Positions 5,565 to 27,168 of a DNA stretch of 43,525 nucleotides are shown here, one piece after another. The translations under genes were made by a program, and so were the position numbers. Numbering within the stretch: position 1 is the first letter of the stretch; every line of letters begins with the position of its first letter. The DNA is from a virus. The notes under the pieces were generated by a model that was not told the origin of the DNA, did no database searches, and saw nothing but the letters and a program-made list of their open reading frames with translations. The stretch is from positions 1-43,525 of IMG/VR virus record IMGVR_UViG_3300048597_000115. One strand, 5' to 3'.

Positions 5565-5565
5565 T

Positions 5566-8247: not shown

Positions 8248-8276
8248 TTGACGCTTTGCGTTTGATGTTGTATTAT
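8248..8276 (+). promoter_or_regulatory. sigma70-type promoter TTGACG-N17-TATTAT
   Basis: -35 ttgacg at 8248-8253, 17-nt spacer, -10 tattat at 8271-8276. Followed by AAGGTGG SD and ATG at 8298. Confidence 0.65.
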
Positions 8277-8297
8277 TTACTTATAAGGTGGTGAGCG

Positions 8298-8714: not shown

Positions 8715-8716
8715 AC

Positions 8717-9961: not shown

Positions 9962-9977
9962 TTACTTCCCCCTCAAA

Positions 9978-10556: not shown

Positions 10557-10565
10557 AACAATCCC

Positions 10566-10868
10566 TTAATTGCAGTTATTCTTGACGTACTCTTGAGCCT
10601 TCTCGCTCCAACGAAACACTTTACTTGCGTCCGAAGTTTGAAAACCAAAGACACCGTTACACTTCTCAAGTGGCCAGTCTTTAACGTGAACAACCTGCAT
10701 CTTCTTTGGATCCGTGATGCGATACTCGCCGCACACATTAAACTGCGTGTCCGTTTCCCACACTCTGTCAGTCGGGAACTTCGGAAGTTTGTTACACGCG
10801 CTAAGGCTAAGCCCTGTTAAGAAGGTCAGCAGCAGCTTTGATTTTCTCAAGGCGATCTTTTGCAGCAT
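10566..10868 (-). CDS. outer-membrane lipoprotein, o-spanin candidate
   Basis: Start moved to ATG 10868 behind GGAGAAA SD. Signal peptide plus lipobox: MLQKIALRKSKLLLTFLTGLSLSAC. The 5' end overlaps the upstream TM/coiled-coil gene by 62 nt (overlapped spanin layout). Confidence 0.5.
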   Translation of the reverse strand: MLQKIALRKSKLLLTFLTGLSLSACNKLPKFPTDRVWETDTQFNVCGEYRITDPKKMQVVHVKDWPLEKCNGVFGFQTSDASKVFRWSEKAQEYVKNNCN

Positions 10869-11016
10869 TGTATTTCTCCACGTTCTTCTTGTTGGTTTCT
10901 TCAAAAGCCTTTTCTTCTTCTGCAAGCTCGTAAAGATTCACAACTTTTTTTTGTAGCTTTAAGGCCATCCATGTAAGGACGGCCTGAGCAAGCCACATAA
11001 GTGCTTTATCGATCAT
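10807..11016 (-). CDS. N-terminal TM plus coiled-coil protein, i-spanin candidate
   Basis: 69 aa. ALMWLAQAVLTWMAL hydrophobic segment, then a charged helical region. Overlapped by the lipoprotein gene in another frame. Confidence 0.4.
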   Translation of the reverse strand: MIDKALMWLAQAVLTWMALKLQKKVVNLYELAEEEKAFEETNKKNVEKYNAAKDRLEKIKAAADLLNRA

Positions 11017-11243
11017 TAGCCCTCAGCGCCGTCGATCTTATCGATGTTTGACGTGACAAAGCCATCAATCGCATCAAGTGCTGCTGGCAAGATACCGCCA
11101 ACAAGTCCGCCTTGAATCTCAGCAGACTTTTTAAGCCATGTTTTCAAAGCGGCGTAAGCCTTCTCTGCGCCGTCTTCAAGCAGTGGCAAGCCTTGTGCTT
11201 CTAGTTCTGCTGCGAGTGCTTTTAAATCAAAAGCCTTTTCCAT
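11016..11243 (-). CDS. hypothetical protein (75 aa) in lysis cassette
   Basis: ATG behind AGGGGGA SD. Amphipathic GGLVGGILPAALDAI segment. Confidence 0.45.
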   Translation of the reverse strand: MEKAFDLKALAAELEAQGLPLLEDGAEKAYAALKTWLKKSAEIQGGLVGGILPAALDAIDGFVTSNIDKIDGAEG

Positions 11244-11252
11244 TATATCCCC

Positions 11253-11510
11253 CTATGGTTTGTTGTTTGTTTTTTCTAGGCGAGTCACACGCTCACCTAA
11301 ATCGTTTATTTTTTTGGTTTGTGTTTTCTCAAGATCCAAGATGGACTCTTTGAGATCGTTAATGTTCGAGCCGATCTTTTTAAGACTCTGCTCGATGGAC
11401 GCAAGGTGGTGCGCGACTTTCCCCTTAATTAAAAACCAGATCACACCAACAGTGATGAGATCCTTTGGGCTCAACAATTTTTCCAATAGCTCAATAGACA
11501 AGAACTCCAT
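11253..11510 (-). CDS. single-TM coiled-coil protein, holin candidate
   Basis: Start moved to ATG 11510 behind TAGGGGTG SD. LITVGVIWFLI hydrophobic segment, then a charged helical tail. First gene of the lysis block. Confidence 0.3.
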   Translation of the reverse strand: MEFLSIELLEKLLSPKDLITVGVIWFLIKGKVAHHLASIEQSLKKIGSNINDLKESILDLEKTQTKKINDLGERVTRLEKTNNKP

Positions 11511-11518
11511 GCGCACCC

Positions 11519-12796
11519 CTATAAAACCTGCCAACCCGTCCCGTCGCAAACAATCTGTCGCGAAGAGTATTGTGTTGTGAGTGAAGATGTTGTTGCTCCA
11601 TCGATTGTTTCAGATGCGTTGCCATCAAAAATGCAAGAGTTTCCACTTGCGTCTGTCTTCTTTAAGTGAAAGCGAACGCCCTTAGATGACGCTGCTGCGG
11701 GAAGTGTCACCGTCACGTTGCCGCCTGTGGCGTCGCAAAGAAAAACGTTGTCCCACTTTGTTGCTGTTACGCTGCTATTTATGCTTCGCGTGTCGAGCGT
11801 ATAGTCTAACCCGTATGTTCCCATCACTCGCCACGCCGTTGTGTCGTTTACAATAAACACAGTGTCGCCAGCGTCGCGCATGACAAGCGTTGAAAGTCCC
11901 CCGACAAGCTCAGAGGCGTTGGGGTCGATCGTGCAGGTGTTTGCGGCCACTGGCTTGTGAATGATAAGCCAGCGCCCAGTCCCCGCCGAAGCCACTGCCG
12001 GAAGGCTCACGGTTACGTTTGATGAAGTCGTGTCGCAGTTAACAACTTGAGATGTGCCACTCACCGCACCCGAAGAGTAGTTATATGTCGTCGGAGAAGC
12101 TGGCGCTTGCCAGATCATGCCTGTTGGTTGGGCGGCAGAAGCAGTAAGAACCGTGCCATCTGCGCCAACCCCAAGGCGCGTCACTGTGTTTGATGCCGTG
12201 GCAGCATAGAGATCGCCCTTCGTTGTGAGAACAGAGCGAGTCTGTCTTGCGTCAAGCTGGGTTTGCACATCACTTGTGGTGGTTGAAAGATAGCCCACTT
12301 GCGTTGCTGTTGTGGCAGACGCAGAAATAAAGCCCGAGCCATCGCTCACAAGCGCTCGGCTTGCGGTGGTCGCAGCGAGCTTGTTTACTGCAATCCCCGC
12401 AGATGCACGAATCTCGTTGTTGTCGATGTTCGTGATGGTATTGTCGTCCGCGTTTATTGTTTTGTTTGTTAGCGTCTTTGTGTTCGCTGAGGACAAAAGA
12501 TCCGTGAGCCCATCAAGAAGGTTGAGCTCTGTTGTCGATATAAGTGGAGAACTCACTAGGCGCTGACTCCCGTCAACGACGGCCACTGTGTCCACAGTCT
12601 GATCGAAAAGCTGCACGCCCCCCGTGCCGTTGGGGTTTAAAACAATGTCGCCGTTTGTGTTCTTACTTGAGATCGTGTTGCCATCTAAAACAAGGTTGTC
12701 AACCGTGACCTTATCAAAAACCTTCGACTGTCCATAGGCGCTTAACGAAACAAAGCTAAGCAGTAAAATAGTGCTTCTTGATTTTAATAGTCCCAC
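11519..12796 (-). CDS. tail fibre protein
   Basis: Start set to GTG 12796 behind ACGGGGGA SD; the ORF-track start 12820 is TTG. Fibre-type motifs TTELNLLDGLT and QVGYLSTTTSDVQTQLDAR. Thr/Ser/Asn-rich. Confidence 0.6.
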   Translation of the reverse strand: MGLLKSRSTILLLSFVSLSAYGQSKVFDKVTVDNLVLDGNTISSKNTNGDIVLNPNGTGGVQLFDQTVDTVAVVDGSQRLVSSPLISTTELNLLDGLTDLLSSANTKTLTNKTINADDNTITNIDNNEIRASAGIAVNKLAATTASRALVSDGSGFISASATTATQVGYLSTTTSDVQTQLDARQTRSVLTTKGDLYAATASNTVTRLGVGADGTVLTASAAQPTGMIWQAPASPTTYNYSSGAVSGTSQVVNCDTTSSNVTVSLPAVASAGTGRWLIIHKPVAANTCTIDPNASELVGGLSTLVMRDAGDTVFIVNDTTAWRVMGTYGLDYTLDTRSINSSVTATKWDNVFLCDATGGNVTVTLPAAASSKGVRFHLKKTDASGNSCIFDGNASETIDGATTSSLTTQYSSRQIVCDGTGWQVL

Positions 12797-13691
12797 TTGA
12801 TCCCCCGTTGTCAGACGCAAGTCTAAGCTGCGCCGTTGTTGTTCCCGACAAAGTAAAAGTTAAGCCGTGCTCGTCGCCCTCATAACCACCATCCACAAAA
12901 ACCCAAGCGCTGTTCTTGTAGTGAAGCGCAAAGCGCCCCGTCGCAAAGATGGTTGTTCCACGCTCGACCATATACTCGAAGACCACGGCCTTATATGAAG
13001 TGCTCGCAAACGTTTCGCCAGTGAGATCTGTTGCCGCTTGGTTGTTGGTGAAGTTGTGCGTTGTCGCAAGAGATAGCGGCGCAATGCCAAGGTTCGTGAG
13101 CGCTGCCGCGGCGCTTGAGAGCTCAGAGAGATTGTTTGTCGCAAGCAAAACTCCAAGCGCAGACGTGACATCGCTATAACTCTTGAGCTCAAACGCAGTG
13201 CCGCCGGAGTTAAAGCCAAGAAGTTTGTTCCCGTATGCGCCAGATGGGATTGTTCCAAGTGTTGTGCTTGTTTCAGAAAACTTAATTGTTCGGTTAAGTT
13301 CATCTTGTTGCTGCTGCGCAATCATCACCAAAGAATCGAACGCGTTCTCATGCGTCTCTGGGAAAAAGCTCCCTTGGTTTCTTAAATCAAAAGGTTGCTT
13401 GAGAGCTCGCACCCGGCGGATCACGATCACCCAGTCAACCTTCAGGCTGTTTCCGGTATTGATCCAATCGCGTGCGCCAGTCACAAGAACAACGTTCCCG
13501 CCCGTGGCCACACCAACACCTGTCACAGTGTAGTCGGTGGTGAGAGTGAGTGTTGTCTCAACCCCAGTGGTGGGGTGCCTCACCGTCACAAGAAGATCAT
13601 CGTCATCAAGGACCTTGAAAGTGTAAGCGTATGTGCCAACCGCACCTGTTCCGGTGTATGACACCCGATTTACTAAAGACGTTATGGACAT
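12756..13691 (-). CDS. tail fibre / fibre-adaptor protein with T7 gp17 N-terminal-like region
   Basis: 311 aa. N-terminus VSYTGTGAVGTYAYTFKVLDDDDLLVTV...TDYTVTG...IRRV...FPETHENAFDSLVMIAQQQQDE follows the T7 fibre N-domain pattern. Sits directly after the core-protein genes, as in T7. Confidence 0.5.
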   Translation of the reverse strand: MSITSLVNRVSYTGTGAVGTYAYTFKVLDDDDLLVTVRHPTTGVETTLTLTTDYTVTGVGVATGGNVVLVTGARDWINTGNSLKVDWVIVIRRVRALKQPFDLRNQGSFFPETHENAFDSLVMIAQQQQDELNRTIKFSETSTTLGTIPSGAYGNKLLGFNSGGTAFELKSYSDVTSALGVLLATNNLSELSSAAAALTNLGIAPLSLATTHNFTNNQAATDLTGETFASTSYKAVVFEYMVERGTTIFATGRFALHYKNSAWVFVDGGYEGDEHGLTFTLSGTTTAQLRLASDNGGSSGTIKIKKHYFTA

Positions 13692-13708
13692 CCTTATCCC
13701 CCCTGTCC

Positions 13709-13745
13709 CTTGATGCTAGATCACTGTTGCGATAATAGCATCAAG
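13709..13745 (-). other. 10-bp-stem hairpin in the 70-nt gap between the giant gene and the fibre gene
   Basis: cttgatgcta (13709-13718) pairs with tagcatcaag (13736-13745), 17-nt loop. No trailing U-run. Confidence 0.6.
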
Positions 13746-13761
13746 TAAAGCTAAAATCACA

Positions 13762-16700
13762 TCATCTTCCTGTCAACAAGCCGCGCATGAACTCGTCCCC
13801 TGTCTCTGGGTCTGCTTTGCCCTCGTTGTAGTCGATCAAATAGCCCGCCGTTTTCGACACCTGCCCCATTGGAACACCCGCCAAGGCCAGCGCACTCATC
13901 GCGTCTTGGGTCGCCCGCTTCTTATTCAGATCGCCCGTTGCAGCTTCATAAACGTCGTAAGGAATGTGCGCGAGCTTTTCAATCTGCGTCACCGCTGGCG
14001 AGAGCGTCAGACGATCATCAAACGGTTTGTCGTTAAATTGATTGATGGCGTTGTTGAGAACTGGACCTGCGCCCGGAACCATCGCAAAGCCCATGCGCAT
14101 CTGAGAGCCAAAGAATAAGCCCACGAAGTCGTCCATGTATTCATCGTCATCATCTTCATCAAGCCCGCTTGATTGCAGCGCTTTTAGAATAAGATCGCCA
14201 AGAACCGCAGGGATCATAAAGCCCATGAGATAAACATAGAAGAGCTTCCCCGCGCCCTTTCTCAAGCCAACCTCTCGAGAGATGGTTTGCACCTGCCCGT
14301 AGTTGAGGTTCGCAAGGTTGTTGAAATAACCAGCAAACATCAAAAAGAGCCGAGTAAATGGACGGCCTGTTTCTGCCGTGCTGACATCCTCTGGGTTCAT
14401 GGATCCTTGAGTTGTGCGCACAGCTTCGTCTGCTGACCACACCGCTTCTTGCTCGGTGGATCCACTCTCGATCGCTTGCTCGTAAGCCCCCACCCACACA
14501 ATGTTGTCCACCACGTTCTGTGCTGCGCTTTGTAAAACATAGCCGTGAGTTTCAAACCACATTGTCGTGTTCTTATAAAGCCCCGGATCAAGTGCAATCT
14601 TCTCAATCCCGCTATGCACTTCCATCACCTGCGTGGTGGTTCTTGTCTTCATAAAGTCAGACTTCTCTCGAACAGACTTTGCTGTGTCTGCTGGCGAGCG
14701 CGAGAACTTATAAAGCGCGTTTCTCACATAGTGCGGCTTCACCACGACAAGCGCCGCAGAAAAGCCCGTCACCTGTTGGATCGTGTTTGCGAAGTTTAAG
14801 AACATCGCATGGAGCCCCACACGCTTTCTTATCACCTTAAACGTTCTATCAATAAGGCGACCACCAAAGCCCGTTGCAGACTCCACCACTCTTTGTGTCG
14901 CGGCTCTTTGAAGCGCCGGAATAATAACATCGCTCACCGTTGTGCGATCAAGCGCCTCAAGAGCTCCACGCACTTCCTTGTCGCTCACGATCTTCATCAC
15001 GTCTTTAACTCTTGGCTCAATGTGAATGAACCGAAGAACCTTATCTAAGTGCATACTCGCAAGACGAACATCCATTGCAAGTGGCGCGACATATCTCTGC
15101 ACGCGACTCTTTGTGAACCCACGCCCCGTGGTCGGGAACGTGTAAGAGTTATTCACTCCGCTCACAGCTTCCTTCTCGGCTCTTGCGCTTGCGTCACTGT
15201 TTAAATACTGATCCACAATCGCTGGCACATAACCACCACGATAAACACCATAGGGCGTTTCAAACTCATTGGCCGTGATCTCGCTAAAGTAGTGACCATA
15301 CATCTTCTTGTGCGCCTTTTGCGCCTCTGGCTTGAGCGTCTCGTTGAGGTTCCACATCGCTTGAAGGAAGTCGTAGTCTTGCTTAGAAAGCACTCCCTCT
15401 CTTTGGAGCCTTGTCTCAAACGCTTTAAACTTCGAGTCATCAAGAACGCCCTCATCGTCGATCGTTCCCCACTCATAACCAAGCAAGAGCTTCCTAAAGT
15501 TACTTTCGTTCCCTCTGTGGAGAAGAGCTCCGAGAAGCTGAGCTTTATCTTGGAACTCAAAGTTGAGCTCTGGTGAAGCGATCTTTCCCTTCTTGAAAAT
15601 ATCTTTGTAAGTTTTAAAAATCTTTTGCAGATCTAAGAACGTCTTTTCCTTCGCCAAGCGATACTTAGTTGTGCCGTCGATGATCGGGCGATAGATGTTT
15701 CTTCTCATCGCTGTGCTTTCGTTTCCGTCAACCGATACGGCCCAGTGCTCGATCCTTCTGAGTCTTGCTCTTATGCCAAGGAAGTCGATCTTTGTCTTAT
15801 CCATATCCTCAACACTTTTTCTGTACTTCTTCTCAGCGCCAGTTTCGCCAAGCACCTCAAGCGCTCGGAGCTTCACCTCTTCTCGCGCCACGTTGACATC
15901 CACCATCTTTCCATCGATCTCGATTTGTCGAGCGCTCTTTGCTAGATCCCACAGCGCGTTCACGCTATCGATCACTCGCTCAACAGACTCAACCGATAAC
16001 TCTTTGTAGTCGCCACTAAACTCTGCAATGTCTGACACAATCGTGTAAATCGTTTCATAAGTTGATGGGTCGTACTTCTTGATTGAATCAAGATACGCCA
16101 TCGCGGACTTGTCTGCTTTGCCTTTTCCAAGACCGAACTGCGTAAGGATCGCACGAATCGCGTTTACATAGTCCACCTCGCGGCTCTTTGCGATCTCATC
16201 ATCTGGACGATAGAAGCGCGCCTTGTGATCGTCAAACTTCGTCATAAGCTCTTTAAACTCAATCGCTGCTTTGTAAAGCTCGTGGTTTAAAAGTTCTCTG
16301 AGCTTCGCATCATACGCGCCCTCGAAGTCCCCTTGCGCGAGCTTCACGCCAGCTTCTTTCGCCGCCTTCTTCTCAGCGTTATAATAAAGATGCGGACGCA
16401 CATCTTTCACAATGCGCTTTCCAATAATACGATGAGCTTCGGCTTTGACTTCCTTGCTCGATGGCACACGCTTCGTTGCTTGACGAATCACATCTTTCAT
16501 CACTGGCAGATTGTTCTCAACGAGATGTTGTAGCTGCAAGCGAAGAAGCTGAGAGTGCTTGTCATTGTGAAGAGCCTTTGTGACTTCTTCTGAAAGCTGT
16601 GCCGACTCAAAGAGATCCGGATATTCTTGTTTCATTTCCATATCGGCTTGCGCCTCAACCGCTTCTCTGAGCGTTGGTGCGTTTGCGATGGTGGTCATCA

Positions 16701-19700
16701 TCACATCGCCAGACTCAAAGCCAAGCATCTCAGCAGCAAGATCCAAGCTCATCCCACCTTTTTGCGAAACACCGCGATGGCGAAGTCTTTTCAAAAACTG
16801 CTGGCCGTAGTTCTCAACGATCTCTTCGCGAGAAAGTTTAAATGGCGTTGTCCCCTCATCAAGCGGTGACTTGTCGGGCTTGGTTCCATACTGCAAGAAC
16901 GCAAGCGCCTTGTAGAGATTCGTTTGCTCAAGCTCCGCACGGATGCGATCGCGCTTGATGTTCTTCTGATCGCGATAGAAAGTGGTCTTCTCTCTTTCAA
17001 TCTGACGGATAGCGATGTCGTTCAAGTGCGCTTTCGACGCGTCCTCTGCTTCTTGAACCGCGTTCAAATACTTCTCGGCCTTCACACCAGTGAGCCCAAA
17101 CGTGTCCGGGTTCTTAAAGATCGGATCCACACTTGTCCCTTGCACTTTTGCAATCTCTTCTTCTGTGGCGATCATGCGATCCATGACGCTTCTGATCTCG
17201 TCAGAGAGAGTCACGTTGAGCGAGATGCGCTTATAGATGTCAAGAAGCCATACGCGAAAACGGGCAAAGGCATCGCGCATAGCAAGGGAAGGTGCCCTGC
17301 CTTCTCTTAGATAAGCCTCAAAGGAACGCGCCCAGAGCTCGTGATGCTCTGTCTTAAGCTCAGAGCGATCCTTCACCCCTAAGTAGTTTAAGATCGCTGC
17401 GTAGTCGTCCTTGATCTGCTGTGAGGCATCCGGCGCTTGAGCCAGATCCCCCATGACCTCTAAGAAGAAGTGCCCCGTTTCATGAAGAAAAGTTGAAAAG
17501 TCTGCGTTCTTAAACAGGCTAATGTTCACACCGCCCGTATTAAATTGAATCGATCCCTTGCGCTCTATTGCGTCCCCGTGGAAATATGGATCTATCTTTC
17601 GACGAATCGCGTTGACGTTTGTCTTGAAGTTGTCTATACTGATTGTGTTGGTGCCATTGTCAGACGCAGCGTCTCCGCTTTGTGTGGATGTACCACTGAT
17701 CTGACTTTGCACCACAATTTCTTCTGCCTGTCGGTCGTGATAGAAAAACCCTTCCTTCGTTTCCTTAACCGTCACTCTCACAAGAAAGTTTTTCTGTTCT
17801 GTTTTTATTGGCGCGTAGAAAGTATGAAACGCAATGATGTCTCGACGCTCTTTACGGTCTGGCGTTTTTGTCATGTAAACTGCGCCCTCAAGAACCTTGT
17901 CGAGATTTACAAGACTCACTTGATTTGCAAAGCGCGAGCTTGCATTGCCAGACTTTCTCAAGCCGTCAGAGGATACTTTAATATCCCAACCCGTGTGCTT
18001 GTTCTTAAAGCTCTTACCTTGGAAAGACTTTGCAAACTCTTTCGCTTTCGCAAGATCAAGGCTTATTGGAACAGTGGCATCTTTGATCTCAACTTTCTCG
18101 GGCAAAGCGAAGTCGATTTGGTTGTCGTGTTCTGGTGGGGCGTAAAAACCACCGTCGTCGTTTCTTCTGCTTTGATAAAGCGTAAAGCCCTCTTGAGCTT
18201 TCGTCTTTATGTCTGGCGAGATCTCAACACCCCAAGCGTTCACATCCACAAGATCCACTGGCGCAACCTTCGCGTTCTTGTCGAGCTTCTTTAAAATCGC
18301 GGGAACAACTTTTCTCGTGAGCACATTGTCGTAGAAGAACTCCATGCCTTCTTTGCGCGGAGCTTTCTGGCCCGTCTCTTTAACCTGCATCTGCTCCCAG
18401 ATGTTATCCGTCAGGCTCTTGAGATCTTCTTGTGTTCTCTCGCGCCCGAGTGTGTCGCGCACGATTTTAGCGAGATCTTCTTTTGTTCTTACAACCTCGC
18501 CACGTCTTTCAAGAAGCTGGCCACGCGCACGCGCAAGCTCTTCGATGTTGATGCCGTCTTCTGTCTGCCCACCGCGCTGCTCGACTGAGCCGACGAGGAA
18601 ATATGGATATGGAGTAAGCTGCTCTTGTCGATAAACCTCTGCATCTTGGATGGAGTTAAAGTTTGTGCCCGTTAGCCGCCCGCCGTCAGAAGTCTTAAAG
18701 TAAAACTTTCCGGGCAAGTCTGGATGCTCTTCGATGGTCGCCGCAGAAAGTTCTTTACGGAATATCTCAGAGCTCCCCTGAGCATAACCTTCTTTCTTCA
18801 CCCACGTCAGATCATCCGTTCCCCAGCGCTCAACCTGCACGCTTGCAGGACTCCACGCCAGAACGTCGTATCCGCCCTCTGTGGCGAGCTTCATCATGCG
18901 CTTCATCACAAGTGTGGCCCACGCTTCTGTCTGCTTGTATGGAGCGTCGGGGACTCTACTAGACGCATCCTCATAAGCCTTCTTCGCATCAAGAGCTTTT
19001 GTGTTGAGCTCTTCAACGGTGGAGCTCTCTGCATTGTATTTTTCTGTTAAAGCCGCAAGCTGCTCGTCCGCGAAAAGAACATCGTAAAGCTCTGCGCCCA
19101 GACGCTCTTTTGTCATCCCCTCATCCCAGCTTCCGGACTTAACTGATCGACGAATCTCGTTGAGCACGCCAAGCGAAAAGCTGCCAGCAGAAGGAATGTT
19201 TTTCGTTATCTCTTTGATTCTTGTGCTTATCTCATCAAACGTTTTAAAAGACCGTTGCTTTGCTTCGTCTCTTTGCTTTTGTATATCTTCATATTCTTTT
19301 TTAACGCGAGCAAACTCTTCATCGTTTGCGTACCCGCGCTCCCTGCCCTTTTGGTGCCAATCGGATTGCACTTCCTCAACGAATAGCACACGCTTTCCGT
19401 CTGGTGTTTCTCGGTCCGTGACTCGAGCATGAGCCACCACGTTTGGTTGCTCCCAGTGACTTTCCTTAAACCACTCTTCGCTTGGAACCGTGAACAAAAG
19501 CTCACGATAGTTTGAGCCGTTCTTGACCTTATAACTTCCAAACTTGCTCTTTCCTCGCGGCGTGTTCACGTCATCGACGGGCTCAAGCTCTTTCTCTTTC
19601 TTTTCTTTTCTCTCAGACACGAACTTGTTATCGACAAGAACTTTTTCTATTTCCTTAAAGAAGTCTTGATCTGTTGTGGCCTCTTCGCCAGTATCGAGCT

Positions 19701-22700
19701 TTGATTCTATCTTAAATATTTTCGCGTCGTCATCACTGCCTTCTACTTTCACTTCAAGCGTCCAGCCCTTGACGTTGTTCCCTCGAATATAAATATCTAG
19801 GGCCGGGTGTTTAATGATCGCGCGGAGCTTGTTTTCTTTTCTGTTTGGATCCAAGAAGAAAGCCCGAGCTTCTTCGTCTGCGAGAATCCTCATGTTGTTC
19901 TTGTCTGCGTCTTCGATCTCTTCTTGCGTCTTTCCCTCATACTCGCTCGGATAGTTCTCGCGAGCCTTGCGCTGATACTCTTCTTTCTTTTCTTTTAATA
20001 GCAGCTTGGCTTTTTTCTCTCTCAATGAGCGAAGCGTTTTCAGTTCGCTTGTGATATTGTGAAGCACTCGATAGAACTCGAGATCCTCAGCGCGTGAATA
20101 ACTTAAAAGGTCGGCATCAAGTTCGCCCCTTTCGCGAAGGATACTTGCCATCTTGACTTGCGCTTCGTTGAGGTTTCGCCCAAGAGAGTTCCCGTCTTTA
20201 TCAGACCACTCGTACTCATCGCTTCCATAGAGCGTGACAGTTTCCTCATATCCATCAATATCTGTGTATGTGCCAGTGACTTCATAGCGAGCGCTATAGT
20301 AGTCATCGCTTTCGACGTTCTCTTCTGCCATCTTTTGCGCAATCTCTGAGCGCTTTTCTTCAAGTGCATCTTCAAGCCCCGACTCATCAACGTTTCCGTC
20401 TTCGTCGGTGTAGTCGGGAAGCAATAGCTCTCGCTGCTGCTCTTTCTCGCCGCCCCTTTCTTCCCACCAATAGTCATCCGACATATAGTTGTCATACTCG
20501 CTCTCAATATCATAGTGGTCATTTGAGTGATCGCGCTCGGGCTCGCTCCACTCGATGTTCCCGATGTTCTCAGTCTCGCTTGAAGAGCCCGCTTTCTTGT
20601 AGTCTGGGCTCAACACAATCTGATCGACCTTGAGCCCGTTTTCTTTGATGAAGTTTAAAACGTCTTCTTTCTTCACTGGCCCTTCTTGCGTCTCAAGCCA
20701 GTCTGTTAGCCCAAGGTTATCAAGTTCATCTTTCTTAATGCCAGCGATGTTCTTTATGCGCCCAGCAAGATCCTTACCCGGCATCTGCTTGAAGTTCATC
20801 TTTTCAACTTCGCGCTCCACTTGCGAATAGAAACCAAGCGGTGAGAGTGGCGTTTGTTGTGGCACAGTTTGGAAAAGCGTTAAGCCTTGGCCCAAGAGCT
20901 CAGCGCGCATCTTTGGCGTGATCTCAAGCGAGTGGACTTTGGTGCCCTCTGTTCTTAGCCCAGATAAAATCTCAAGAGCTTCTTCTTCGCTCTCGTAGTT
21001 TTCATAAGCCCCGCCCTCGTCGCTGTAAACTTTCCCGTTTGCATCTTCTATGTGATAGTAACCATCGCCACTGTTTCTGACTGAGAGTTTATTGTTGAGA
21101 GATCCGCCGCCAATGTCGCTCATCTCAACTTTCACACCGTACTTCTTGCCGAGCTTGTTGGCGTAGTTCACGAGCATCTCGTCGTAGAAAGCCTTCATGC
21201 CCTCGCCGCCGACTTTTAAGTTTTGCCCCTCGTAAATGTAAACGCCCTCGCCGTCTTCTCGCCCTTCTTTGTTGACGATCTTTTCTGCAAGATCTTTCCC
21301 GAGCAAATCTTCAAGTTTTTCTTTTGTGACATTCGCGTGAGATGCAAGCGCGCCTTGGCCCTTAATAGCCTCAACGTCATACGTTCCATCTTCATTGTAA
21401 GTAACGTCCACATGATCCACTTGCTTCGCCAAGTTGTAGTGCTCAGCGTTCTGCTCACCCGTTGACCAGCTTATCTTGTCATAGCCGTTCTTAGCTGCAT
21501 CAAGAAGCAAGCTCTTCATCAAGAACTCATGCCAGTTCTTTTTCAGTGGAGCGTCGGGGACAGCGTTTTGCTCTTCTTTTATTTGTGTGCTTATTTGTGC
21601 TATTTGCGCGTCAACTTCTTCGATGGCGTTATTTAATATGTCTGCCTGAGACGTGTACTCTTCTTGATTAACAAGGCGACCATACTCCGCAGTGACCCAC
21701 CAACTGTTATCGCCTTCACCAATGGCGTTCGCCGTCTCTTCGGCCATCCTCATGTAGCGAGAGTTGAGCGCCAAAAGCTCTTTATTCAAAGCAGACCTTG
21801 ACTCGTAAAGCTCTTTACTCTTGGCATAGAGCTCTTTTTCGTTGCCCTTTTGATACCCTCTCTTTAGTCCATCTTGATGCCAGTCTGATTGCACCTCGTC
21901 TGCGTGAAGAAGTTTCTTTCCATCCTTATCCACGCGATCTGTAAGCCTCAAGTGCCCAAGAACGCCGGGGCCAAAGTGAGAGCTTGTGTAAACTTTCTTT
22001 TGTGCTTGAAGCTCCATCTCGTGCTTGAACTGAGTTTCAAGCTCTTTCACTTGCGCATCGCTCATCTTTTGAAGATCACGATCTTTTATGCCGCGCTCTT
22101 TCGCCCACTCGAAGAACTTGTCGTTAGCTTTCTCACCGGGCTCAAACACTTTGGGCTTATAGATGAACAAGCGCTCGCGATAGTTTTCTCCACCGGGGAG
22201 CGTGTATCTTTGGAACTTCGCGCCTTGCGGATCGTTAGCTTCGCGATTGATTTGATCCTCGATGTCGTCAATCTCTAGACCAATAGTTTCCTTTTCGTCG
22301 ATGGCTCTTGCATATTCTGCAAACTTTTCTTTCACAAGCTGTGGAACATCTTCTCGCTGCTCCACGCTTTTGATAGTTTCTTCTCCGCTGTGGCCCCAAC
22401 TAAGCCCATTTGTTAAAACGCTCGCCTTAACGCGACTAAAACCAGTCTGCTCCACGGCAGCGTCGAAAGCTGCTGCTGCGTCTTCGGCTTTAACTTGAGC
22501 TTCGCCAAACTTTACTTGTATCTCTTGGCGCTTTGCCTTGAGCTCGTCAAGCGCCGCATTGTCTGCGCCAACCATCTTCTCTTCAATCTTCACTTGGTTC
22601 TCACCAAGGAAGTCCAAAAGCTCTTCTTTTGAAACGCGCTCTTTCCCCTCTAAGAACTTATCAATGCCACTCCATCTGCGCTCGTCTTGCTTGATGTCTT

Positions 22701-24969
22701 TAATCATCCCCTCGACTTGCTCGCGAGTGGCGAAGTTCCCCATCTTCTGCGAAACAGTGTCACTGAGCTTCGAGTAAAAGCCCATCTCATTTAAACGCTG
22801 GCGCTCAACCAAAACTTTCTGGTTGTACTCTTTGATCTGCTCGCCGAGTTTCCCGTTGATTGTTAGATTGTATTTTTCAAAAATCTCTCTCGGCGTTTTC
22901 TTTTCTTGCTTTGCAAGGTTCGAGAGAATAGAGCCCCATATTGCAGCTTGCGCCTTCGCATCTGCTGGTTGATAGTTGTTGCCCAAGTTAAGAAGCGTTG
23001 ACGCGATCTCGCCCTCGATCTCTTTCTTCTCTCTCTCGTTAAGCTCATCAACAGAAAGCTCGGGCTCGTTCTCTGCTTCTTTTGCAAGCTCACCAAGCAC
23101 CTGAGGAAGTTGGCTTGCTGTTTCTTGTGCCTCAGTGGGACTCATGCCAGCAGCTTCAAAGCGGATGACATCGCTCAACACATCGAGCTTTTCGTTCTTC
23201 ACAACGTGCGTAAGGTATGACGTGAGTGGCATCTCAAGCTCACTGCCTGTCTTCTTGGCTTCGGCATACGCTTTCCCACCATCGCCCATGATCTCGCCCG
23301 CCACTTGCACGGGAGAAAGCCCCGCTTCTTGGAGCTTCGTGTCCCACTCGTCTGATTGAAAGAACACAGTCGCGGGCTCATTTCCCACCGTTGAGAACTG
23401 ATCGAGAATCTCTTTTACTCGACCGGGCAAGCGCTTTGTGATCTTCGCATCACGAACCGTGCTCACAAGCTCTTTCAGTGCGTTTGCCTTAGCGCCCACA
23501 TCAAGCGCCTTCTGCGCATCCGCCACCACTTCTTCGGCGGCTTTAGCGGGATCCTTCGAGTATCGTGCGGCACGGATCGAAGACATCACTCCGATCTCTG
23601 CCACCGAGTGGCCACCCGCAGCGACACCCTCAAGCATACTCTCGCCCATATTAACTTTAGAAAAATCACCCTTCTCTCGAGCAAGCTGTCCCGCAGCTTC
23701 CGAAAGAGACTCGCCCCCCATCTGGACGCTCATATCTTTTGCAACACCCTTGGCCTTCACCCACTTCGATGCGCCAGCTTTTGCGAGAAACTTCCCGGCA
23801 AAGAGCCCCATCGCAGAGTCAACCGCAGCAGTGGTTAAACCCTTTCGCATCGCCTCGGCACGAATCTCTTTCATTAAAGACTCGTCTTGATAAGCCTTCA
23901 TAAGAGCTTGTGGATCCGTCACATCGATCCCGCGCTTAGAGAGCGCTTCGTTGATCTGTGAGCCCACCTCTGTAAACGCACTGCCTGAGAAGGTGCCAAG
24001 AACTCCACCAAGCGCAGATGCTATTGGAACAGTCCAAAGTTCTTCGGGTGTGGCGACTTGTGGACCCATCTGGCCCGCAACCGCGGCGATCTTCGCGCCA
24101 GTTATAGCACCACCTGCGCCCCCCACAATCGACGGCACACCAAACGCCAACGTCTCAGTCACCAAGTGGCCAGTCCCTTTTGGTTGACGAGCGGCTTCTT
24201 GAAGAAGATCAAGCGACTCAATGACAGTCATCCCGCCACCCGCGCCAATGCTCTTTAACGCCCCAAGAATCTTTCCTTGTCGCATCTTAGAAAAACCAGA
24301 GACAAACTCTTGCCAACTTTCGTTGATGTCGCCCATCTCTTGGTCCGCCATCTCGCGAAACTTCTTCACATAGTCTGGCGCGTTTTCACGAATCTTCTGC
24401 GACTTCTTATTGAGCTCGGCCACCATCTCTGCGCCCTGCTCGGGCGAGATCGTTCCATAGGCCACAGCAAGGTGGATGCTTGATGCGCCAAGATCGTTGA
24501 TGCTTGTGCGCCCAGCGTCTTTAAGATCACTCGCATAAGACTGGGTTTTCTTCTTCATCACAAACGGACGGAAGTTTCTTTCGATGTTTTTCAAAGACTC
24601 AACGTCATCTTTTGCGATCGCAGCGTTATCTGGCACCGCAAGGAAGTTTGCAGTTTGCGGATAGTTCTTAACGATGTCGTCGTAGTCGAAGAGATCCACT
24701 TCGGCTTTCTGTTGAACCTCAACGAAGTTTCTTTCAACAACGGGAGTGGGAAGCCCCATGCGCGAAGCCAAGTCCACAGCTTTTGCTCTTTCGTCTGGGT
24801 TCTTCTCCCGCGCAAGGTGCATGGAAACTTTAAGCGGCTCTTTTAAGTCTGGTTGAAACGTTTCCTTCACGATCGAATCATATTCATCTTGCACGGGCGG
24901 GGGCTCAGACTTTTGCGCCGAGAACGTTTCTTTAACTATAGAGTCATATTCGTTGCTAGTATCTTGCAT
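13762..24969 (-). CDS. giant internal-virion / ejection protein with polyvalent-type modules (3,735 aa)
   Basis: Uninterrupted 11,208-nt ORF with ATG start. Occupies the T7 gp16 position (after the 182-aa and 555-aa core proteins, before the fibre). HETGH at aa 2496-2500. Duplicated EVQSDWHQ-containing module. Hydrophobic segments near both ends. Confidence 0.8.
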   Translation of the reverse strand: MQDTSNEYDSIVKETFSAQKSEPPPVQDEYDSIVKETFQPDLKEPLKVSMHLAREKNPDERAKAVDLASRMGLPTPVVERNFVEVQQKAEVDLFDYDDIVKNYPQTANFLAVPDNAAIAKDDVESLKNIERNFRPFVMKKKTQSYASDLKDAGRTSINDLGASSIHLAVAYGTISPEQGAEMVAELNKKSQKIRENAPDYVKKFREMADQEMGDINESWQEFVSGFSKMRQGKILGALKSIGAGGGMTVIESLDLLQEAARQPKGTGHLVTETLAFGVPSIVGGAGGAITGAKIAAVAGQMGPQVATPEELWTVPIASALGGVLGTFSGSAFTEVGSQINEALSKRGIDVTDPQALMKAYQDESLMKEIRAEAMRKGLTTAAVDSAMGLFAGKFLAKAGASKWVKAKGVAKDMSVQMGGESLSEAAGQLAREKGDFSKVNMGESMLEGVAAGGHSVAEIGVMSSIRAARYSKDPAKAAEEVVADAQKALDVGAKANALKELVSTVRDAKITKRLPGRVKEILDQFSTVGNEPATVFFQSDEWDTKLQEAGLSPVQVAGEIMGDGGKAYAEAKKTGSELEMPLTSYLTHVVKNEKLDVLSDVIRFEAAGMSPTEAQETASQLPQVLGELAKEAENEPELSVDELNEREKKEIEGEIASTLLNLGNNYQPADAKAQAAIWGSILSNLAKQEKKTPREIFEKYNLTINGKLGEQIKEYNQKVLVERQRLNEMGFYSKLSDTVSQKMGNFATREQVEGMIKDIKQDERRWSGIDKFLEGKERVSKEELLDFLGENQVKIEEKMVGADNAALDELKAKRQEIQVKFGEAQVKAEDAAAAFDAAVEQTGFSRVKASVLTNGLSWGHSGEETIKSVEQREDVPQLVKEKFAEYARAIDEKETIGLEIDDIEDQINREANDPQGAKFQRYTLPGGENYRERLFIYKPKVFEPGEKANDKFFEWAKERGIKDRDLQKMSDAQVKELETQFKHEMELQAQKKVYTSSHFGPGVLGHLRLTDRVDKDGKKLLHADEVQSDWHQDGLKRGYQKGNEKELYAKSKELYESRSALNKELLALNSRYMRMAEETANAIGEGDNSWWVTAEYGRLVNQEEYTSQADILNNAIEEVDAQIAQISTQIKEEQNAVPDAPLKKNWHEFLMKSLLLDAAKNGYDKISWSTGEQNAEHYNLAKQVDHVDVTYNEDGTYDVEAIKGQGALASHANVTKEKLEDLLGKDLAEKIVNKEGREDGEGVYIYEGQNLKVGGEGMKAFYDEMLVNYANKLGKKYGVKVEMSDIGGGSLNNKLSVRNSGDGYYHIEDANGKVYSDEGGAYENYESEEEALEILSGLRTEGTKVHSLEITPKMRAELLGQGLTLFQTVPQQTPLSPLGFYSQVEREVEKMNFKQMPGKDLAGRIKNIAGIKKDELDNLGLTDWLETQEGPVKKEDVLNFIKENGLKVDQIVLSPDYKKAGSSSETENIGNIEWSEPERDHSNDHYDIESEYDNYMSDDYWWEERGGEKEQQRELLLPDYTDEDGNVDESGLEDALEEKRSEIAQKMAEENVESDDYYSARYEVTGTYTDIDGYEETVTLYGSDEYEWSDKDGNSLGRNLNEAQVKMASILRERGELDADLLSYSRAEDLEFYRVLHNITSELKTLRSLREKKAKLLLKEKKEEYQRKARENYPSEYEGKTQEEIEDADKNNMRILADEEARAFFLDPNRKENKLRAIIKHPALDIYIRGNNVKGWTLEVKVEGSDDDAKIFKIESKLDTGEEATTDQDFFKEIEKVLVDNKFVSERKEKKEKELEPVDDVNTPRGKSKFGSYKVKNGSNYRELLFTVPSEEWFKESHWEQPNVVAHARVTDRETPDGKRVLFVEEVQSDWHQKGRERGYANDEEFARVKKEYEDIQKQRDEAKQRSFKTFDEISTRIKEITKNIPSAGSFSLGVLNEIRRSVKSGSWDEGMTKERLGAELYDVLFADEQLAALTEKYNAESSTVEELNTKALDAKKAYEDASSRVPDAPYKQTEAWATLVMKRMMKLATEGGYDVLAWSPASVQVERWGTDDLTWVKKEGYAQGSSEIFRKELSAATIEEHPDLPGKFYFKTSDGGRLTGTNFNSIQDAEVYRQEQLTPYPYFLVGSVEQRGGQTEDGINIEELARARGQLLERRGEVVRTKEDLAKIVRDTLGRERTQEDLKSLTDNIWEQMQVKETGQKAPRKEGMEFFYDNVLTRKVVPAILKKLDKNAKVAPVDLVDVNAWGVEISPDIKTKAQEGFTLYQSRRNDDGGFYAPPEHDNQIDFALPEKVEIKDATVPISLDLAKAKEFAKSFQGKSFKNKHTGWDIKVSSDGLRKSGNASSRFANQVSLVNLDKVLEGAVYMTKTPDRKERRDIIAFHTFYAPIKTEQKNFLVRVTVKETKEGFFYHDRQAEEIVVQSQISGTSTQSGDAASDNGTNTISIDNFKTNVNAIRRKIDPYFHGDAIERKGSIQFNTGGVNISLFKNADFSTFLHETGHFFLEVMGDLAQAPDASQQIKDDYAAILNYLGVKDRSELKTEHHELWARSFEAYLREGRAPSLAMRDAFARFRVWLLDIYKRISLNVTLSDEIRSVMDRMIATEEEIAKVQGTSVDPIFKNPDTFGLTGVKAEKYLNAVQEAEDASKAHLNDIAIRQIEREKTTFYRDQKNIKRDRIRAELEQTNLYKALAFLQYGTKPDKSPLDEGTTPFKLSREEIVENYGQQFLKRLRHRGVSQKGGMSLDLAAEMLGFESGDVMMTTIANAPTLREAVEAQADMEMKQEYPDLFESAQLSEEVTKALHNDKHSQLLRLQLQHLVENNLPVMKDVIRQATKRVPSSKEVKAEAHRIIGKRIVKDVRPHLYYNAEKKAAKEAGVKLAQGDFEGAYDAKLRELLNHELYKAAIEFKELMTKFDDHKARFYRPDDEIAKSREVDYVNAIRAILTQFGLGKGKADKSAMAYLDSIKKYDPSTYETIYTIVSDIAEFSGDYKELSVESVERVIDSVNALWDLAKSARQIEIDGKMVDVNVAREEVKLRALEVLGETGAEKKYRKSVEDMDKTKIDFLGIRARLRRIEHWAVSVDGNESTAMRRNIYRPIIDGTTKYRLAKEKTFLDLQKIFKTYKDIFKKGKIASPELNFEFQDKAQLLGALLHRGNESNFRKLLLGYEWGTIDDEGVLDDSKFKAFETRLQREGVLSKQDYDFLQAMWNLNETLKPEAQKAHKKMYGHYFSEITANEFETPYGVYRGGYVPAIVDQYLNSDASARAEKEAVSGVNNSYTFPTTGRGFTKSRVQRYVAPLAMDVRLASMHLDKVLRFIHIEPRVKDVMKIVSDKEVRGALEALDRTTVSDVIIPALQRAATQRVVESATGFGGRLIDRTFKVIRKRVGLHAMFLNFANTIQQVTGFSAALVVVKPHYVRNALYKFSRSPADTAKSVREKSDFMKTRTTTQVMEVHSGIEKIALDPGLYKNTTMWFETHGYVLQSAAQNVVDNIVWVGAYEQAIESGSTEQEAVWSADEAVRTTQGSMNPEDVSTAETGRPFTRLFLMFAGYFNNLANLNYGQVQTISREVGLRKGAGKLFYVYLMGFMIPAVLGDLILKALQSSGLDEDDDDEYMDDFVGLFFGSQMRMGFAMVPGAGPVLNNAINQFNDKPFDDRLTLSPAVTQIEKLAHIPYDVYEAATGDLNKKRATQDAMSALALAGVPMGQVSKTAGYLIDYNEGKADPETGDEFMRGLLTGR

Positions 24970-26623
24970 CCTTTTTTCCCCGTTTTTTCATAAAGATTTT
25001 CAAAATGTTCTCGTCGCTCGGCTCTTGGTTGTTGCGCTCAAGGGAGCGAGCAATCTTCTCGCGCTCTTCATCTGGCACATCAATCTCAAGCTGCTCGTTA
25101 TCGCCACGCTCAAACTCAAACTTTTGTTTTTGAAAAAAGCCCATAAACCCAGAGTTGGGCACTGTGCCCTTGATCGTGAGCTCATCAACGATCGCTTGAA
25201 TCTCTTTGTTTGACGCTTTCTTTCCGGTTCTCTCTTGCATCACCATCACTTCTTCATCGACCTTACGACGAAAGAGAGCGGCGCGCTGAGCGTCTTTGGT
25301 TCCGGGCTTGGCGTCTGTTTTTATGCCAACATTTTTTAACGCATCGGCCACGATCATCGAGTCTGTGCGCCAACCATCAAGAATCTTCTCGGCACCTTTT
25401 GAGCCTGAGCGCAAATCTTTTTGAAGTCTTGTGAGCTCTTTAAACTCGGCGTCCGCAAGTTTCGTTTTGTATCGCAAAAGGTTTACGTTTTTAAACTCGT
25501 CTTTTGCCATCTTCTGAAAGCCGTAGTAAGTTTCCCAGTCCGTCTCTGTTCCCTTGCCTTTTAAAATATCGTTGATGATCTTGCGATCTTTGTACTTCAA
25601 GGCAACCATAAGGCCCGGTGGTGGCTCTTTTCTCTCTTCTGCGTATCGTGCAGCAGCTTCAAAGAGCCTGTCGTCGCGCTCGTCTTCGGCGCGCTTCTTC
25701 ATGGCGAAGTGATCTTTAATGTAGTCGGTGGCCTTGAGCCTGACTTCGGGATCCTCAATCTGTCTGGCTTGCTTGTACGCTTGATCGAGCGTGCCGCTCT
25801 TAGCGATGATCGAGTCACTGACTCTCATCCCCTCGCCACGAAGCCACCCCTCGTGGAGCGCTTCTTCTATTTTTTTAATATCTTTCCCAGTAAAATCTTC
25901 GCGCACTGTCTCGAAGTATTCTTTGGCATCCTTATCCATACCACCTGCAAGCATACGCTCAATCACATTGGTGTGAGTCTCACTTGCTGCTTCTTGGATC
26001 TTGAGCTTGATGTACTCGTTTGATAGCCCGTTGTTTTTTGCGTGAGTGTAAATAGCATTTTGCTGGCGATCTAACGCCAGCGCCACACGCTCGGGATCGT
26101 TGTAGCTAAGTGCCGCTGCGTTTCTCTCATTTGCAATAAAGCTCTCAACCGCTTCATCTTCATAGCTTTTCAGTTGGCCTGAGACGTGTTGATAGACTTT
26201 CTTGTGGATGTCGTTGTAGCGAGAGTCAGCGGCGACACGGAAAGCTGAGCGCTGCTCGTCGTTTGAAAAGTTCTTCTCGAGCTCATCGACTTTCTTTTTG
26301 TAAAGCTCTCTTGTTTTTTCGGGAGTCTGAAAAGAAAGCTCCCCGCGTTGATTAAGCACACCGTTTGTTGGATGATGCAAAAGCTCAGTCTCAAACGCTG
26401 AGAGCTCGCTGTCTGCTGAGAAAACTTTTGCAGTGTTGGCGCGTCGGATCTCAAGCCCGATCTGTTCCATTGCTGCTTTTCCCGCATCGGCGCTTGAAGC
26501 AAGGCGCCTCATCGTGGTTTCACCACCACCAAAAGAATCGAGGTTTGCCCCACCATCTGTGAGTCGTTGCTGTGGCGCTTGCGCTTGTTGTACTCTCGGG
26601 ATGTTTAAGGTTGGAACTCTCAC
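24956..26623 (-). CDS. internal virion (core) protein, gp15-position
   Basis: 555 aa, helical and charged. GTG start in a GTGA overlap. Call is by position between the gp14-like and giant genes. Confidence 0.5.
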   Translation of the reverse strand: MRVPTLNIPRVQQAQAPQQRLTDGGANLDSFGGGETTMRRLASSADAGKAAMEQIGLEIRRANTAKVFSADSELSAFETELLHHPTNGVLNQRGELSFQTPEKTRELYKKKVDELEKNFSNDEQRSAFRVAADSRYNDIHKKVYQHVSGQLKSYEDEAVESFIANERNAAALSYNDPERVALALDRQQNAIYTHAKNNGLSNEYIKLKIQEAASETHTNVIERMLAGGMDKDAKEYFETVREDFTGKDIKKIEEALHEGWLRGEGMRVSDSIIAKSGTLDQAYKQARQIEDPEVRLKATDYIKDHFAMKKRAEDERDDRLFEAAARYAEERKEPPPGLMVALKYKDRKIINDILKGKGTETDWETYYGFQKMAKDEFKNVNLLRYKTKLADAEFKELTRLQKDLRSGSKGAEKILDGWRTDSMIVADALKNVGIKTDAKPGTKDAQRAALFRRKVDEEVMVMQERTGKKASNKEIQAIVDELTIKGTVPNSGFMGFFQKQKFEFERGDNEQLEIDVPDEEREKIARSLERNNQEPSDENILKIFMKKRGKKDARY

Positions 26624-27168
26624 TTGGGCTTCCCTTCTTTACTCCACATCTTTCCACCACCTGCTTCATAGGCGCCATAAGCTCTTATGCCGCTTGCAAC
26701 ACCACTTGTGATCCCGGTGAGAAGTGTGTTTCTTGATTGATATTTTGACGTGATGTTTGCCACCTTCCCCTCGTGACGGAAGTTCGCAGCTTGCGCTTTA
26801 AAGCCCAGAGCTTCAAGTTTCGCGTTCGTTCTGATTGTGTCCATGTCCACTTCGCCCGTTGCTCTTGTGTCGTTCTGCACGTCAAACGCGCTCCCACGAG
26901 TGAAGTCTAAGCCTTGTGCCGCAAGCATCGTGCGCTGAGTGCCGATCACTTGCTCGATCTGTGAACGATAGCGGCTTGCTTGCACGCCACCGCGCTTGAT
27001 TGTGTCTTCTGCTTGAATCTCTGCAAAGCGGGCGTTAATGCCAGCAAGGTGCTCTTGATACTTTCCCCACTCGCGCTGCGCTCTTGATTGAGCATAGCCC
27101 CCAAGAATGGAGCCCAGAGCCTCTAGGCCAAACGCGCCCGTGTATGCGCCACTTTCTGTTAGTGCCAT
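26620..27168 (-). CDS. internal virion (core) protein, gp14-position
   Basis: 182 aa, Gly/Ala-rich ends. ATG behind AAGGGGGT SD. Directly after the gp12-like gene. Confidence 0.45.
   Translation of the reverse strand: MALTESGAYTGAFGLEALGSILGGYAQSRAQREWGKYQEHLAGINARFAEIQAEDTIKRGGVQASRYRSQIEQVIGTQRTMLAAQGLDFTRGSAFDVQNDTRATGEVDMDTIRTNAKLEALGFKAQAANFRHEGKVANITSKYQSRNTLLTGITSGVASGIRAYGAYEAGGGKMWSKEGKPK

Follow-up and report, generated by a model that had tools for sequence, protein, structure and literature searches.

A giant putative ejection protein with a duplicated, previously unnamed module in an epsilon15/BPP-1-type podovirus genome

A giant open reading frame

The virus record IMGVR_UViG_3300048597_000115 of IMG/VR was analysed over positions 1 to 43,525, and we refer to this whole 43,525-nt stretch as the window. 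It contains a giant open reading frame (ORF) at 13762..24969 on the minus strand, which starts with ATG and encodes a protein of 3,735 amino acids (aa). An earlier note, made by a model from the sequence alone, had described this ORF as a single frame of 11,208 nt, and both its coordinates and its length are borne out. The window ends in an exact 127-bp direct repeat (1-127 and 43399-43525), and because of this terminal repeat we take the contig to be a complete genome with 43,398 bp of unique sequence, circularly closed or terminally redundant. The giant ORF makes up 25.8% of the unique genome. Coding is almost wholly on the minus strand, and no ORF in another frame within the giant ORF is longer than 249 aa. 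From N- to C-terminus, the encoded protein has the following parts.

22825..24969, minus: conserved N-terminal region, aa 1-715, common to the Bbp10-like family; 40% identity to aa 3-699 of the relative P0278
24856..24951, minus: EYDSIVKETF, two copies, aa 7-16 and 29-38
24559..24825, minus: Pfam LPD22, aa 49-137, E=8e-22
23782..24270, minus: Gly/Ala-rich hydrophobic zone 1, aa 234-396
20869..22824, minus: unnamed module, copy 1, aa 716-1367, with PGGENYRE, EVQSDWHQ, VPDAP and EGMKAFYD
18163..20868, minus: unnamed module, copy 2, aa 1368-2269, with a long acidic/basic helical insert and EVQSDWHQ, VPDAP and EGMEFFYD
17740..18048, minus: Pfam LPD3, aa 2308-2410, E=8e-23
17170..17574, minus: HExxH domain, aa ~2466-2600, predicted zincin-type metallopeptidase
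13765..17169, minus: all-helical C-terminal region, IVP-D core, aa 2601-3735, homologous to the Bbp10 C-terminus and to PHROG 9880
14071..14244, minus: hydrophobic zone 2, aa 3576-3633, candidate C-terminal membrane segments, including the protein's strongest hydrophobic segment

Searches with the entire gene or protein returned little. The ORF had no megablast match among 50,697 phage records, NCBIfam and PADLOC scans of the protein gave insignificant matches only, and comparison of the whole protein with PDB sequences produced only low-complexity and coiled-coil noise. No Pfam family of transglycosylases, methylases, helicases or RNA polymerases matched the protein, in keeping with the earlier note, which had seen no motif of these kinds. 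None of the 3,735 residues is a cysteine, a count that covers this protein only; this may be compatible with unfolded passage through the tail and the periplasm, but it is no proof of it.

A constant chassis shared with Bbp10-like proteins

The two ends of the protein, ~700 aa at the N-terminus and ~1,270 aa at the C-terminus, are those of a known family. With the C-terminal 1,399 aa as the query, tblastn matched 50 phage records, among them phage zth2-2, Manatee Spring virus and Limnohabitans phage DC33 (E=0, 34-38% identity), BPP-1 with its protein Bbp10 (E=3e-91, 83% coverage), Xanthomonas CP2 and Pseudomonas AF, and the match to PHROG 9880 has E=0. Over its N-terminal 713 aa, the protein can be aligned in full with aa 3-699 of P0278, the nearest relative, at 40% identity (E=1e-139); P0278 is without the modules, and the N-terminal region also matches DC33. 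Homology to Bbp10 at the C-terminus, LPD22 at the N-terminus and the gene order described below together place the giant protein in the Bbp10-like family.

At least 588 homologs of this chassis are present in a collection of 5.8 billion proteins. Among the best 120 of these, the median length is 2,130 aa and the longest protein has 2,286 aa; most come from contigs no longer than ~45 kb, and nearly all begin with LPD22. In 89 relatives of nearly full length, a median of 1,252 aa separates the HExxH motif from the C-terminus, compared with 1,243 aa here, while the motif starts at a median position of aa 879 (maximum 1,042), compared with aa 2492 here. Because the length after HExxH is nearly constant, the extra length of the giant protein is wholly confined to the interval that follows the N-terminal region and precedes the HExxH domain.

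Several smaller features of the chassis had been anticipated in the earlier note. The N-terminal decapeptide repeat is indeed present, as EYDSIVKETF at aa 7 and 29, and the nearest relative has NEY... motifs at the corresponding positions. What had been described as Gly-zipper segments are the Gly/Ala-rich hydrophobic segments of aa 234-396. The hydropathy peaks of the protein are confined to two zones, this one and aa 3392-3712, and the strongest segment is at aa 3576. An AlphaFold2 (AF2) model of aa 2440-3639, with a predicted local distance difference test score (pLDDT) of 81.5 and a predicted template modelling score (pTM) of 0.70, is in line with the helical C-terminal part that the note had proposed, as this part is predicted to be almost wholly helical. 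In being mostly alpha-helical, with hydrophobic segments near the C-terminus, the protein has the physical character of an IVP-D protein. By analogy with transmembrane helix (TMH) I of T7 gp16, zone 1 is a candidate for the first membrane-inserting region; TMH I and TMH II of T7 gp16 have the same layout as the two hydrophobic zones here (PMC8954989).

Two observations on related phages belong here. The record PQ492659.1, Limnohabitans phage DC33, describes a genome of 39 kb that has a structural module of the BPP-1-like podovirus kind and encodes a Bbp10-like protein of 3,125 aa with ART-PolyVal; it is filed under Inoviridae in GenBank, and this taxonomy line looks wrong. Epsilon15 encodes two proteins at 9670-14330, gp16 (634 aa) and gp17 (918 aa), where BPP-1-like phages have one gene. 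Conceivably, the first ~700 aa of Bbp10-family proteins might represent a fused counterpart of epsilon15 gp16, for which hhalign gave E=0.047 and a probability of 1% over the Gly-rich zone only.

A variable cargo slot

In the interval that separates the N-terminal region from the HExxH domain, at aa ~640-930, the Pfam domain changes from one relative to the next.

BPP-1: PBECR1, aa 643-729
Limnohabitans phage DC33: ART-PolyVal, aa 664-792
P0282: GGDEF, aa 649-787
P0287: Zeta toxin, aa 783-864
P0281: LPD13, aa 812-924
P0320: LPD23, aa 710-766

Other relatives carry LPD3, GNAT or DUF3990 in this slot, which is flanked by the motifs '...LFxRYxLxI' and 'RGxIxF...STFLHExxH'. In the giant protein the slot is ~1,760 aa long and is filled by two diverged copies of the module and by LPD3, the latter being what the earlier note had recognized as an alpha/beta module of ~120 aa. 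LPD22 and LPD3 both exceed their Pfam curated cut-offs; of the Pfam families named in that note as candidates for comparison, it was thus the LPD families that matched, and MPTase-PolyVal did not.

Polyvalent proteins of phages and conjugative elements were described by Iyer 2017 (PMC5512222), and judged from the predicted domains, variation in the slot is the pattern of that class. It also fits the account of Hardies 2016, in which internal virion proteins variably carry domains bound for the cytoplasm, and in which BPP-1 Bbp10 and the C-terminus of N4 gp50 are IVP-D homologs (PMC4819975). At least two unrelated domains, including LPDs, are joined in the giant protein, its gene is next to structural genes, and the effector domains vary among orthologs. 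The layout of a co-injected, polyvalent effector protein, proposed earlier from the sequence, is thereby upheld by the two LPD domains and by the range of domains (ART-PolyVal, GGDEF, Zeta toxin, PBECR1, GNAT, LPD13 and LPD23) that relatives hold in the slot.

The HExxH domain

The domain that follows the slot has the motif HETGH at aa 2496. Two alignments, one of 16 and one of 48 family members, show H2496, E2497, H2500, E2544 and E2551 to be invariant, and the AF2 model has a beta-hairpin just before the HExxH helix, with E2544 and E2551 on a later helix. The earlier note had called this a zincin-like module. The motif itself stands, but no curated peptidase family matched it, and Foldseek of the C-terminal model against the PDB matched no solved zincin; because of this we label the domain zincin-like by motif only.

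Iyer 2017 proposed HExxH domains of polyvalent proteins as processing hubs, and predicted delivery together with the DNA (PMC5512222). Following that proposal, the domain here may process the polypeptide that carries it, and its position directly after the cargo slot would suit processing in cis. Alternatively, it could be an effector peptidase that performs no self-processing and whose targets would be proteins of the host envelope or cytoplasm or, during penetration, the cross-links of peptidoglycan. The invariance of the motif whatever the cargo would fit such a role, host targeting is one of the options listed by Iyer 2017 (PMC5512222), and a cell-wall role has been proposed for the metallopeptidase of phi24B gp47 by the authors of that study (bioRxiv 10.64898/2026.04.10.717836). 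However, the muralytic domain in this phage comes from the neighbouring gene, and the HExxH domain is always placed directly after the cargo slot, in several proteins directly after the '...PLFQ' motif of the module. We regard the effector peptidase as rather unlikely, and retain autoprocessing as the putative role.

Each copy of the module ends in G(L/F)TL(F/Y)Q, followed within 15 aa by GFY(S/A), at aa 1360-1383 (window ~20821-20892) and aa 2259-2279 (window ~18133-18195). In P0266, P0268 and P0274, the '...PLFQ' end of the module is directly before the HExxH domain. It is possible, judging by these motifs, that the module end is a processing site or a docking motif.

A duplicated module from a very large family

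The two copies of the 650-900-aa module are ~26% identical to each other, and their core aligns at E=1e-20 with collinear matches on its flanks. EVQSDWHQ is found at aa 1025 and 1866, VPDAP at aa 1137 and 2006, and the ExQSDWHQ, VPDAP and FYD motifs are kept in both copies. The duplication claimed in the earlier note is therefore real and its first two signatures hold, while the third is EGMxxFYD and not EGMxFFYD as had been written. In a profile of 90 sequences, E310, Q312, S313, D314, W315, G323 and Y547 (module numbering) are invariant, and more than 50 further positions are near-invariant, mostly polar residues or Gly. These positions cluster in five motifs, PGGENYRE, H..N.LAH.R..DR, EExQSDWHQxGRxxGY, VPDAPF and GGEGMxxFYD.

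The module has no Pfam or PHROG match, and a Pfam search at E<=10 with fragments of the core and five standalone homologs gave nothing meaningful. Against PDB sequences the module profile returned only low-complexity and coiled-coil noise, and a full-text literature search for its motifs found no paper. The AF2 model of copy 1 (pLDDT 89.4, pTM 0.76) begins with a small alpha/beta domain at the N-terminus and also contains two long helical hairpins and an alpha/beta core. Foldseek of this model against the PDB listed SMC/Rad50 heads and 35-column GNAT fragments at E 0.3-2.6; in BFVD its matches were limited to uncharacterised proteins from uncultured tailed phages, among them some that also carry ART-PolyVal, LPD or transglycosylase domains. 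Structure prediction followed by Foldseek, which the earlier note had suggested, led to no PDB match at E<=1e-3 for either the module or the C-terminal model. The module is thus unnamed in Pfam, PHROGs and the PDB, although it could equal one of the LPDs of Iyer 2017 that never entered Pfam.

Three assignments were considered and set aside. An ABC-ATPase, with LPGGE as its signature and hhhhEE as Walker B, was rejected, as there is no P-loop and the 'signature' is in a strand. A methyltransferase, in which VPDAPF would resemble DPPY, was dropped in the absence of a Rossmann fold match, and a PD-(D/E)xK nuclease was dropped as no nuclease fold matched.

The family itself is very large. A word-indexed search with copy 1 found 111 homologs, mostly standalone proteins of ~700 aa without a Pfam domain. 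An exhaustive HMMER search of 1.84 billion cluster representatives found 15,753 matches at E<=1e-3 and 10,658 at E<=1e-30; coiled-coil segments may have inflated the weak end of this list, and the top 150 matches all cover the conserved core. The matches include standalone ~700-aa proteins as well as giants, the largest of 7,483 aa, in which two to six stretches match the module. In 13 such giants Pfam found ART-PolyVal (7/13), LPD22 (3/13), PBECR5 (2/13) and LPD38, RadC, GNAT and PBECR1 (1/13 each), with the module itself left uncovered. On marine podovirus contigs a standalone homolog is located inside the block of internal-virion genes, and elsewhere the context varies. Only 2 of the 50,697 GenBank phage records contain the module. 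In Dolichospermum phage Dfl-JY45 (PP438435.1), a 209-kb cyanophage, a 2,387-aa hypothetical protein at 5400-12563 has two module matches, and this phage could serve as a cultured experimental system for the module.

The order N-terminal region, module, module, HExxH domain, IVP-D recurs in five other cluster representatives, whose IVP-D regions are 21 to 45% identical to that of the giant protein.

P0140: 3,330 aa; N-terminal region, module, module, HExxH, IVP-D
P0131: 4,057 aa; N-terminal region, module, module, HExxH, IVP-D
P0118: 4,268 aa; N-terminal region, module, module, HExxH, IVP-D
P0176: 3,454 aa; N-terminal region, module, module, HExxH, IVP-D
P0231: 3,252 aa; N-terminal region, module, module, HExxH, IVP-D

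Between P0140 and the giant protein, copy 1 against copy 1 and copy 2 against copy 2 are each 35% identical, compared with 25% across copies. Because this copy-specific similarity exceeds the similarity across copies, the tandem pair predates the divergence of these phages. An old tandem pair suggests that the module might work as a dimer, with the pair as an intramolecular pseudo-dimer.

We tentatively propose that the module is a previously unnamed enzyme family with a fold absent from the PDB, that it is among the commonest payloads of virion-delivered polyvalent proteins (more than 10,000 clusters at 50% identity), and that, as a dimer or as a tandem pseudo-dimer, it would act upon a target in the host at the very start of infection. 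The module could instead be structural, extending or spacing the ejection conduit or the stack of core proteins in the capsid and delivering nothing catalytic. About one third of the AF2 model consists of long antiparallel helical hairpins, the best fold matches are coiled-coil proteins, no known enzymatic fold or family matched, and standalone homologs are found between IVP-like genes in podovirus contigs, all of which would fit a structural part. Yet the hairpins are the variable parts of the module, and its invariant residues form a polar cluster that resembles an active site (E, Q, S, D and W, with near-invariant H, R, N and Y). The module also occupies a slot that holds enzymes or toxins in relatives, the nearest of which work without it, and it is found outside podovirus core-gene blocks and in giants with ART-PolyVal or PBECR. 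For these reasons a purely structural module appears unlikely to us.

Gene neighbourhood and integrity of the assembly

The giant ORF is part of a block of virion genes.

29791-30396: tubular tail protein A
27170-29794, minus: tubular tail protein B
26620-27168, minus: T7_gp14-family internal virion protein
24956-26623, minus: 555-aa gp15-position protein with a muralytic N-terminus ('endolysin' PHROG 10475, E=1e-49)
13762..24969, minus: giant ORF, putative IVP-D (T7 gp16-position) ejection protein with polyvalent architecture
12756-13691: fibre-like gene, next after the giant ORF

The order portal, protease, major capsid protein, tubular A, tubular B, T7_gp14-like protein, 555-aa protein, giant ORF and fibre-like gene is the same as in BPP-1 (Bbp14, 13, 12, 11, 10, 9), whose Bbp11 has a muralytic N-terminal domain like that of the 555-aa protein. 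Because the gene order matches that of BPP-1, the giant ORF is in the T7 gp16 (IVP-D) position, as the earlier note had placed it, and Bbp10 is itself an IVP-D homolog (PMC4819975). The transglycosylase that is absent from the giant protein is supplied by the adjacent 555-aa gene. The stop of that gene overlaps the ATG of the giant ORF by 14 nt, which suggests translational coupling.

Elsewhere the genome encodes a primase/helicase, the small and large terminase subunits, a prohead protease and an epsilon15-type major capsid protein (Pfam GP7), and the phage is an epsilon15/BPP-1-type podovirus. A tyrosine-integrase-like gene (window 3640-4770, minus; PHROG 1, E=4e-29) would probably make it temperate in the manner of BPP-1. 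A PAPS-reductase-like gene (window 41977-42699, minus; PHROG 424, E=1e-43) could be an auxiliary metabolic or DNA-modification gene. In tubular tail protein B, aa 126-187 give a borderline match to Pfam E1_FCCH, at 29.5 bits equal to the cut-off.

An ORF of this size might also be an artefact of assembly or gene calling that joins several genes, given that only one metagenomic contig is known to encode this exact protein and that other podoviruses encode the module as a separate gene. We consider this very improbable. The reading frame is uninterrupted, homologs exist for every segment, and the contig closes on its 127-bp terminal repeat. Misassembly driven by repeats is not plausible because the module copies are only ~26% identical, and an assembly artefact is ruled out because five independent, diverged proteins share the order of parts, with copy-specific orthology.

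Interpretation

Taken together, the giant ORF quite probably encodes a large internal-virion (ejection) protein, the counterpart of T7 gp16 (IVP-D), from a Bbp10-like family in which a constant chassis surrounds a variable insert. This protein would be packaged into the capsid core alongside the gp14-like and gp15-position proteins, and infection would expel it, unfolded, through the tail. Its two hydrophobic zones would then insert into the inner membrane, as has been proposed for T7 gp16, placing the segment between them (the cargo slot, the HExxH domain and the helical hub) in the cytoplasm, where the HExxH domain may free the cargo by autoproteolysis. The module pair, with its strictly conserved polar residues, would most likely be an enzyme that acts early in infection as an intramolecular pseudo-dimer. 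The putative placement in the T7 gp16/IVP-D superfamily draws on Hardies 2016 (PMC4819975), on synteny and on physical features.

A number of results weigh against this interpretation. The exact protein is recorded from one contig only. Comparisons by hhalign with the N4 gp50 C-terminus, epsilon15 gp16 and gp17, and T7 gp16 gave probabilities below 2%, with single sequences as templates; a Foldseek search of the PDB with the C-terminal model gave no match at E<=1e-3, the N4 gp50 structure coming up at E=0.23, and the C-terminal profile returned only low-complexity and coiled-coil noise from the PDB sequences. For the HExxH region, no Pfam peptidase family matches, including MPTase-PolyVal, and the sole hint from PDB sequences to its profile is Spartan/SprT at E~8-9. 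The module model has no PDB match at E<=1e-3 and no recognisable catalytic fold, its best matches there being SMC/Rad50-like heads with coiled coils at E>=0.3, and the third of the module made up of long hairpins would also fit a structural role. As a separate observation, the family-invariant GGYVP can be aligned to 'KGTYVP' of T7 gp16 (aa 657-768), a weak match that is not significant and that we set aside.

The earlier note had ranked the locus as its best candidate for an undescribed host-takeover or anti-defence system. That the system is undescribed is not supported, because IVP-D proteins with cytoplasm-bound domains were known in 2016 (PMC4819975), polyvalent proteins in 2017 (PMC5512222), and phi24B gp47 has been found in virions. 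The class of polyvalent ejection proteins is already described, and what is new here is the duplicated module as an unnamed and very large domain family, for which a role in anti-defence or host takeover would be a hypothesis. Its function, once found, would annotate thousands of giant phage proteins at once.

Bbp10-like ejection proteins behave like polymorphic toxins, with a fixed delivery chassis and a swappable payload in one defined slot, and the payload of the giant protein is the largest seen in the family. The motifs that flank the slot offer a simple rule for collecting candidate early-infection effectors from metagenomes, and the slot may be usable for delivering engineered proteins into bacteria along with the phage DNA.

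Comparison with known systems

The closest named counterpart is Bbp10 of BPP-1 (2,052 aa), which shares with the giant protein its gene position, an N-terminal LPD22, an invariant HExxH...E and a helical C-terminus of ~1,250 aa. The difference is in the slot, where Bbp10 has one small PBECR1 RNase-like domain (aa 643-729) and the giant protein has ~1,760 aa with two modules and LPD3, making it 1.8 times longer. T7 gp16 (1,318 aa) is likewise encoded after gp14 and gp15 and before the fibre, and is helical with two hydrophobic zones, one after its N-terminal part and one near its C-terminus. Unlike T7 gp16, the giant protein is without a lytic transglycosylase domain, which the adjacent gene carries, and it is 2.8 times longer.

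As in the polyvalent proteins of Iyer 2017, several unrelated domains, LPDs among them, are combined in one very large polypeptide encoded among virion genes. The duplicated module, however, is not among the Pfam families that came from that study, and MPTase-PolyVal is unmatched here.

N4 gp50 (3,500 aa) is packaged in the virion and has a cytoplasm-bound enzyme ahead of an HExxH region and of an IVP-D-like C-terminus needed for encapsidation (PMC5512222, PMC4819975), so that the giant protein shares with it both its giant size and the layout of a cargo, here a putative enzyme, before HExxH and an IVP-D-like region, although it is without RNA polymerase domains. That the giant ORF is itself an N4-type virion-packaged RNA polymerase (vRNAP), as its size (3,735 aa against 3,500 aa) and position might recall, can be dismissed almost entirely, as four Pfam vRNAP families match N4 gp50 and none of the four (0/4) matches the giant protein, and neither BLASTP nor hhalign detected any similarity to gp50.

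Finally, phi24B gp47 (2,811 aa) is a polyvalent protein found in virions by proteomics and proposed to be an ejection protein (bioRxiv 10.64898/2026.04.10.717836). Like the giant protein it is a large polyvalent protein of a podovirus with LPD domains, and it has a metallopeptidase domain; it differs in carrying LPD5, LPD1 and LPD38 and in belonging to another podovirus lineage, and the module was not reported there. By analogy, phi24B gp47 and N4 gp50 would serve as precedents for the packaging of such proteins in the virion.

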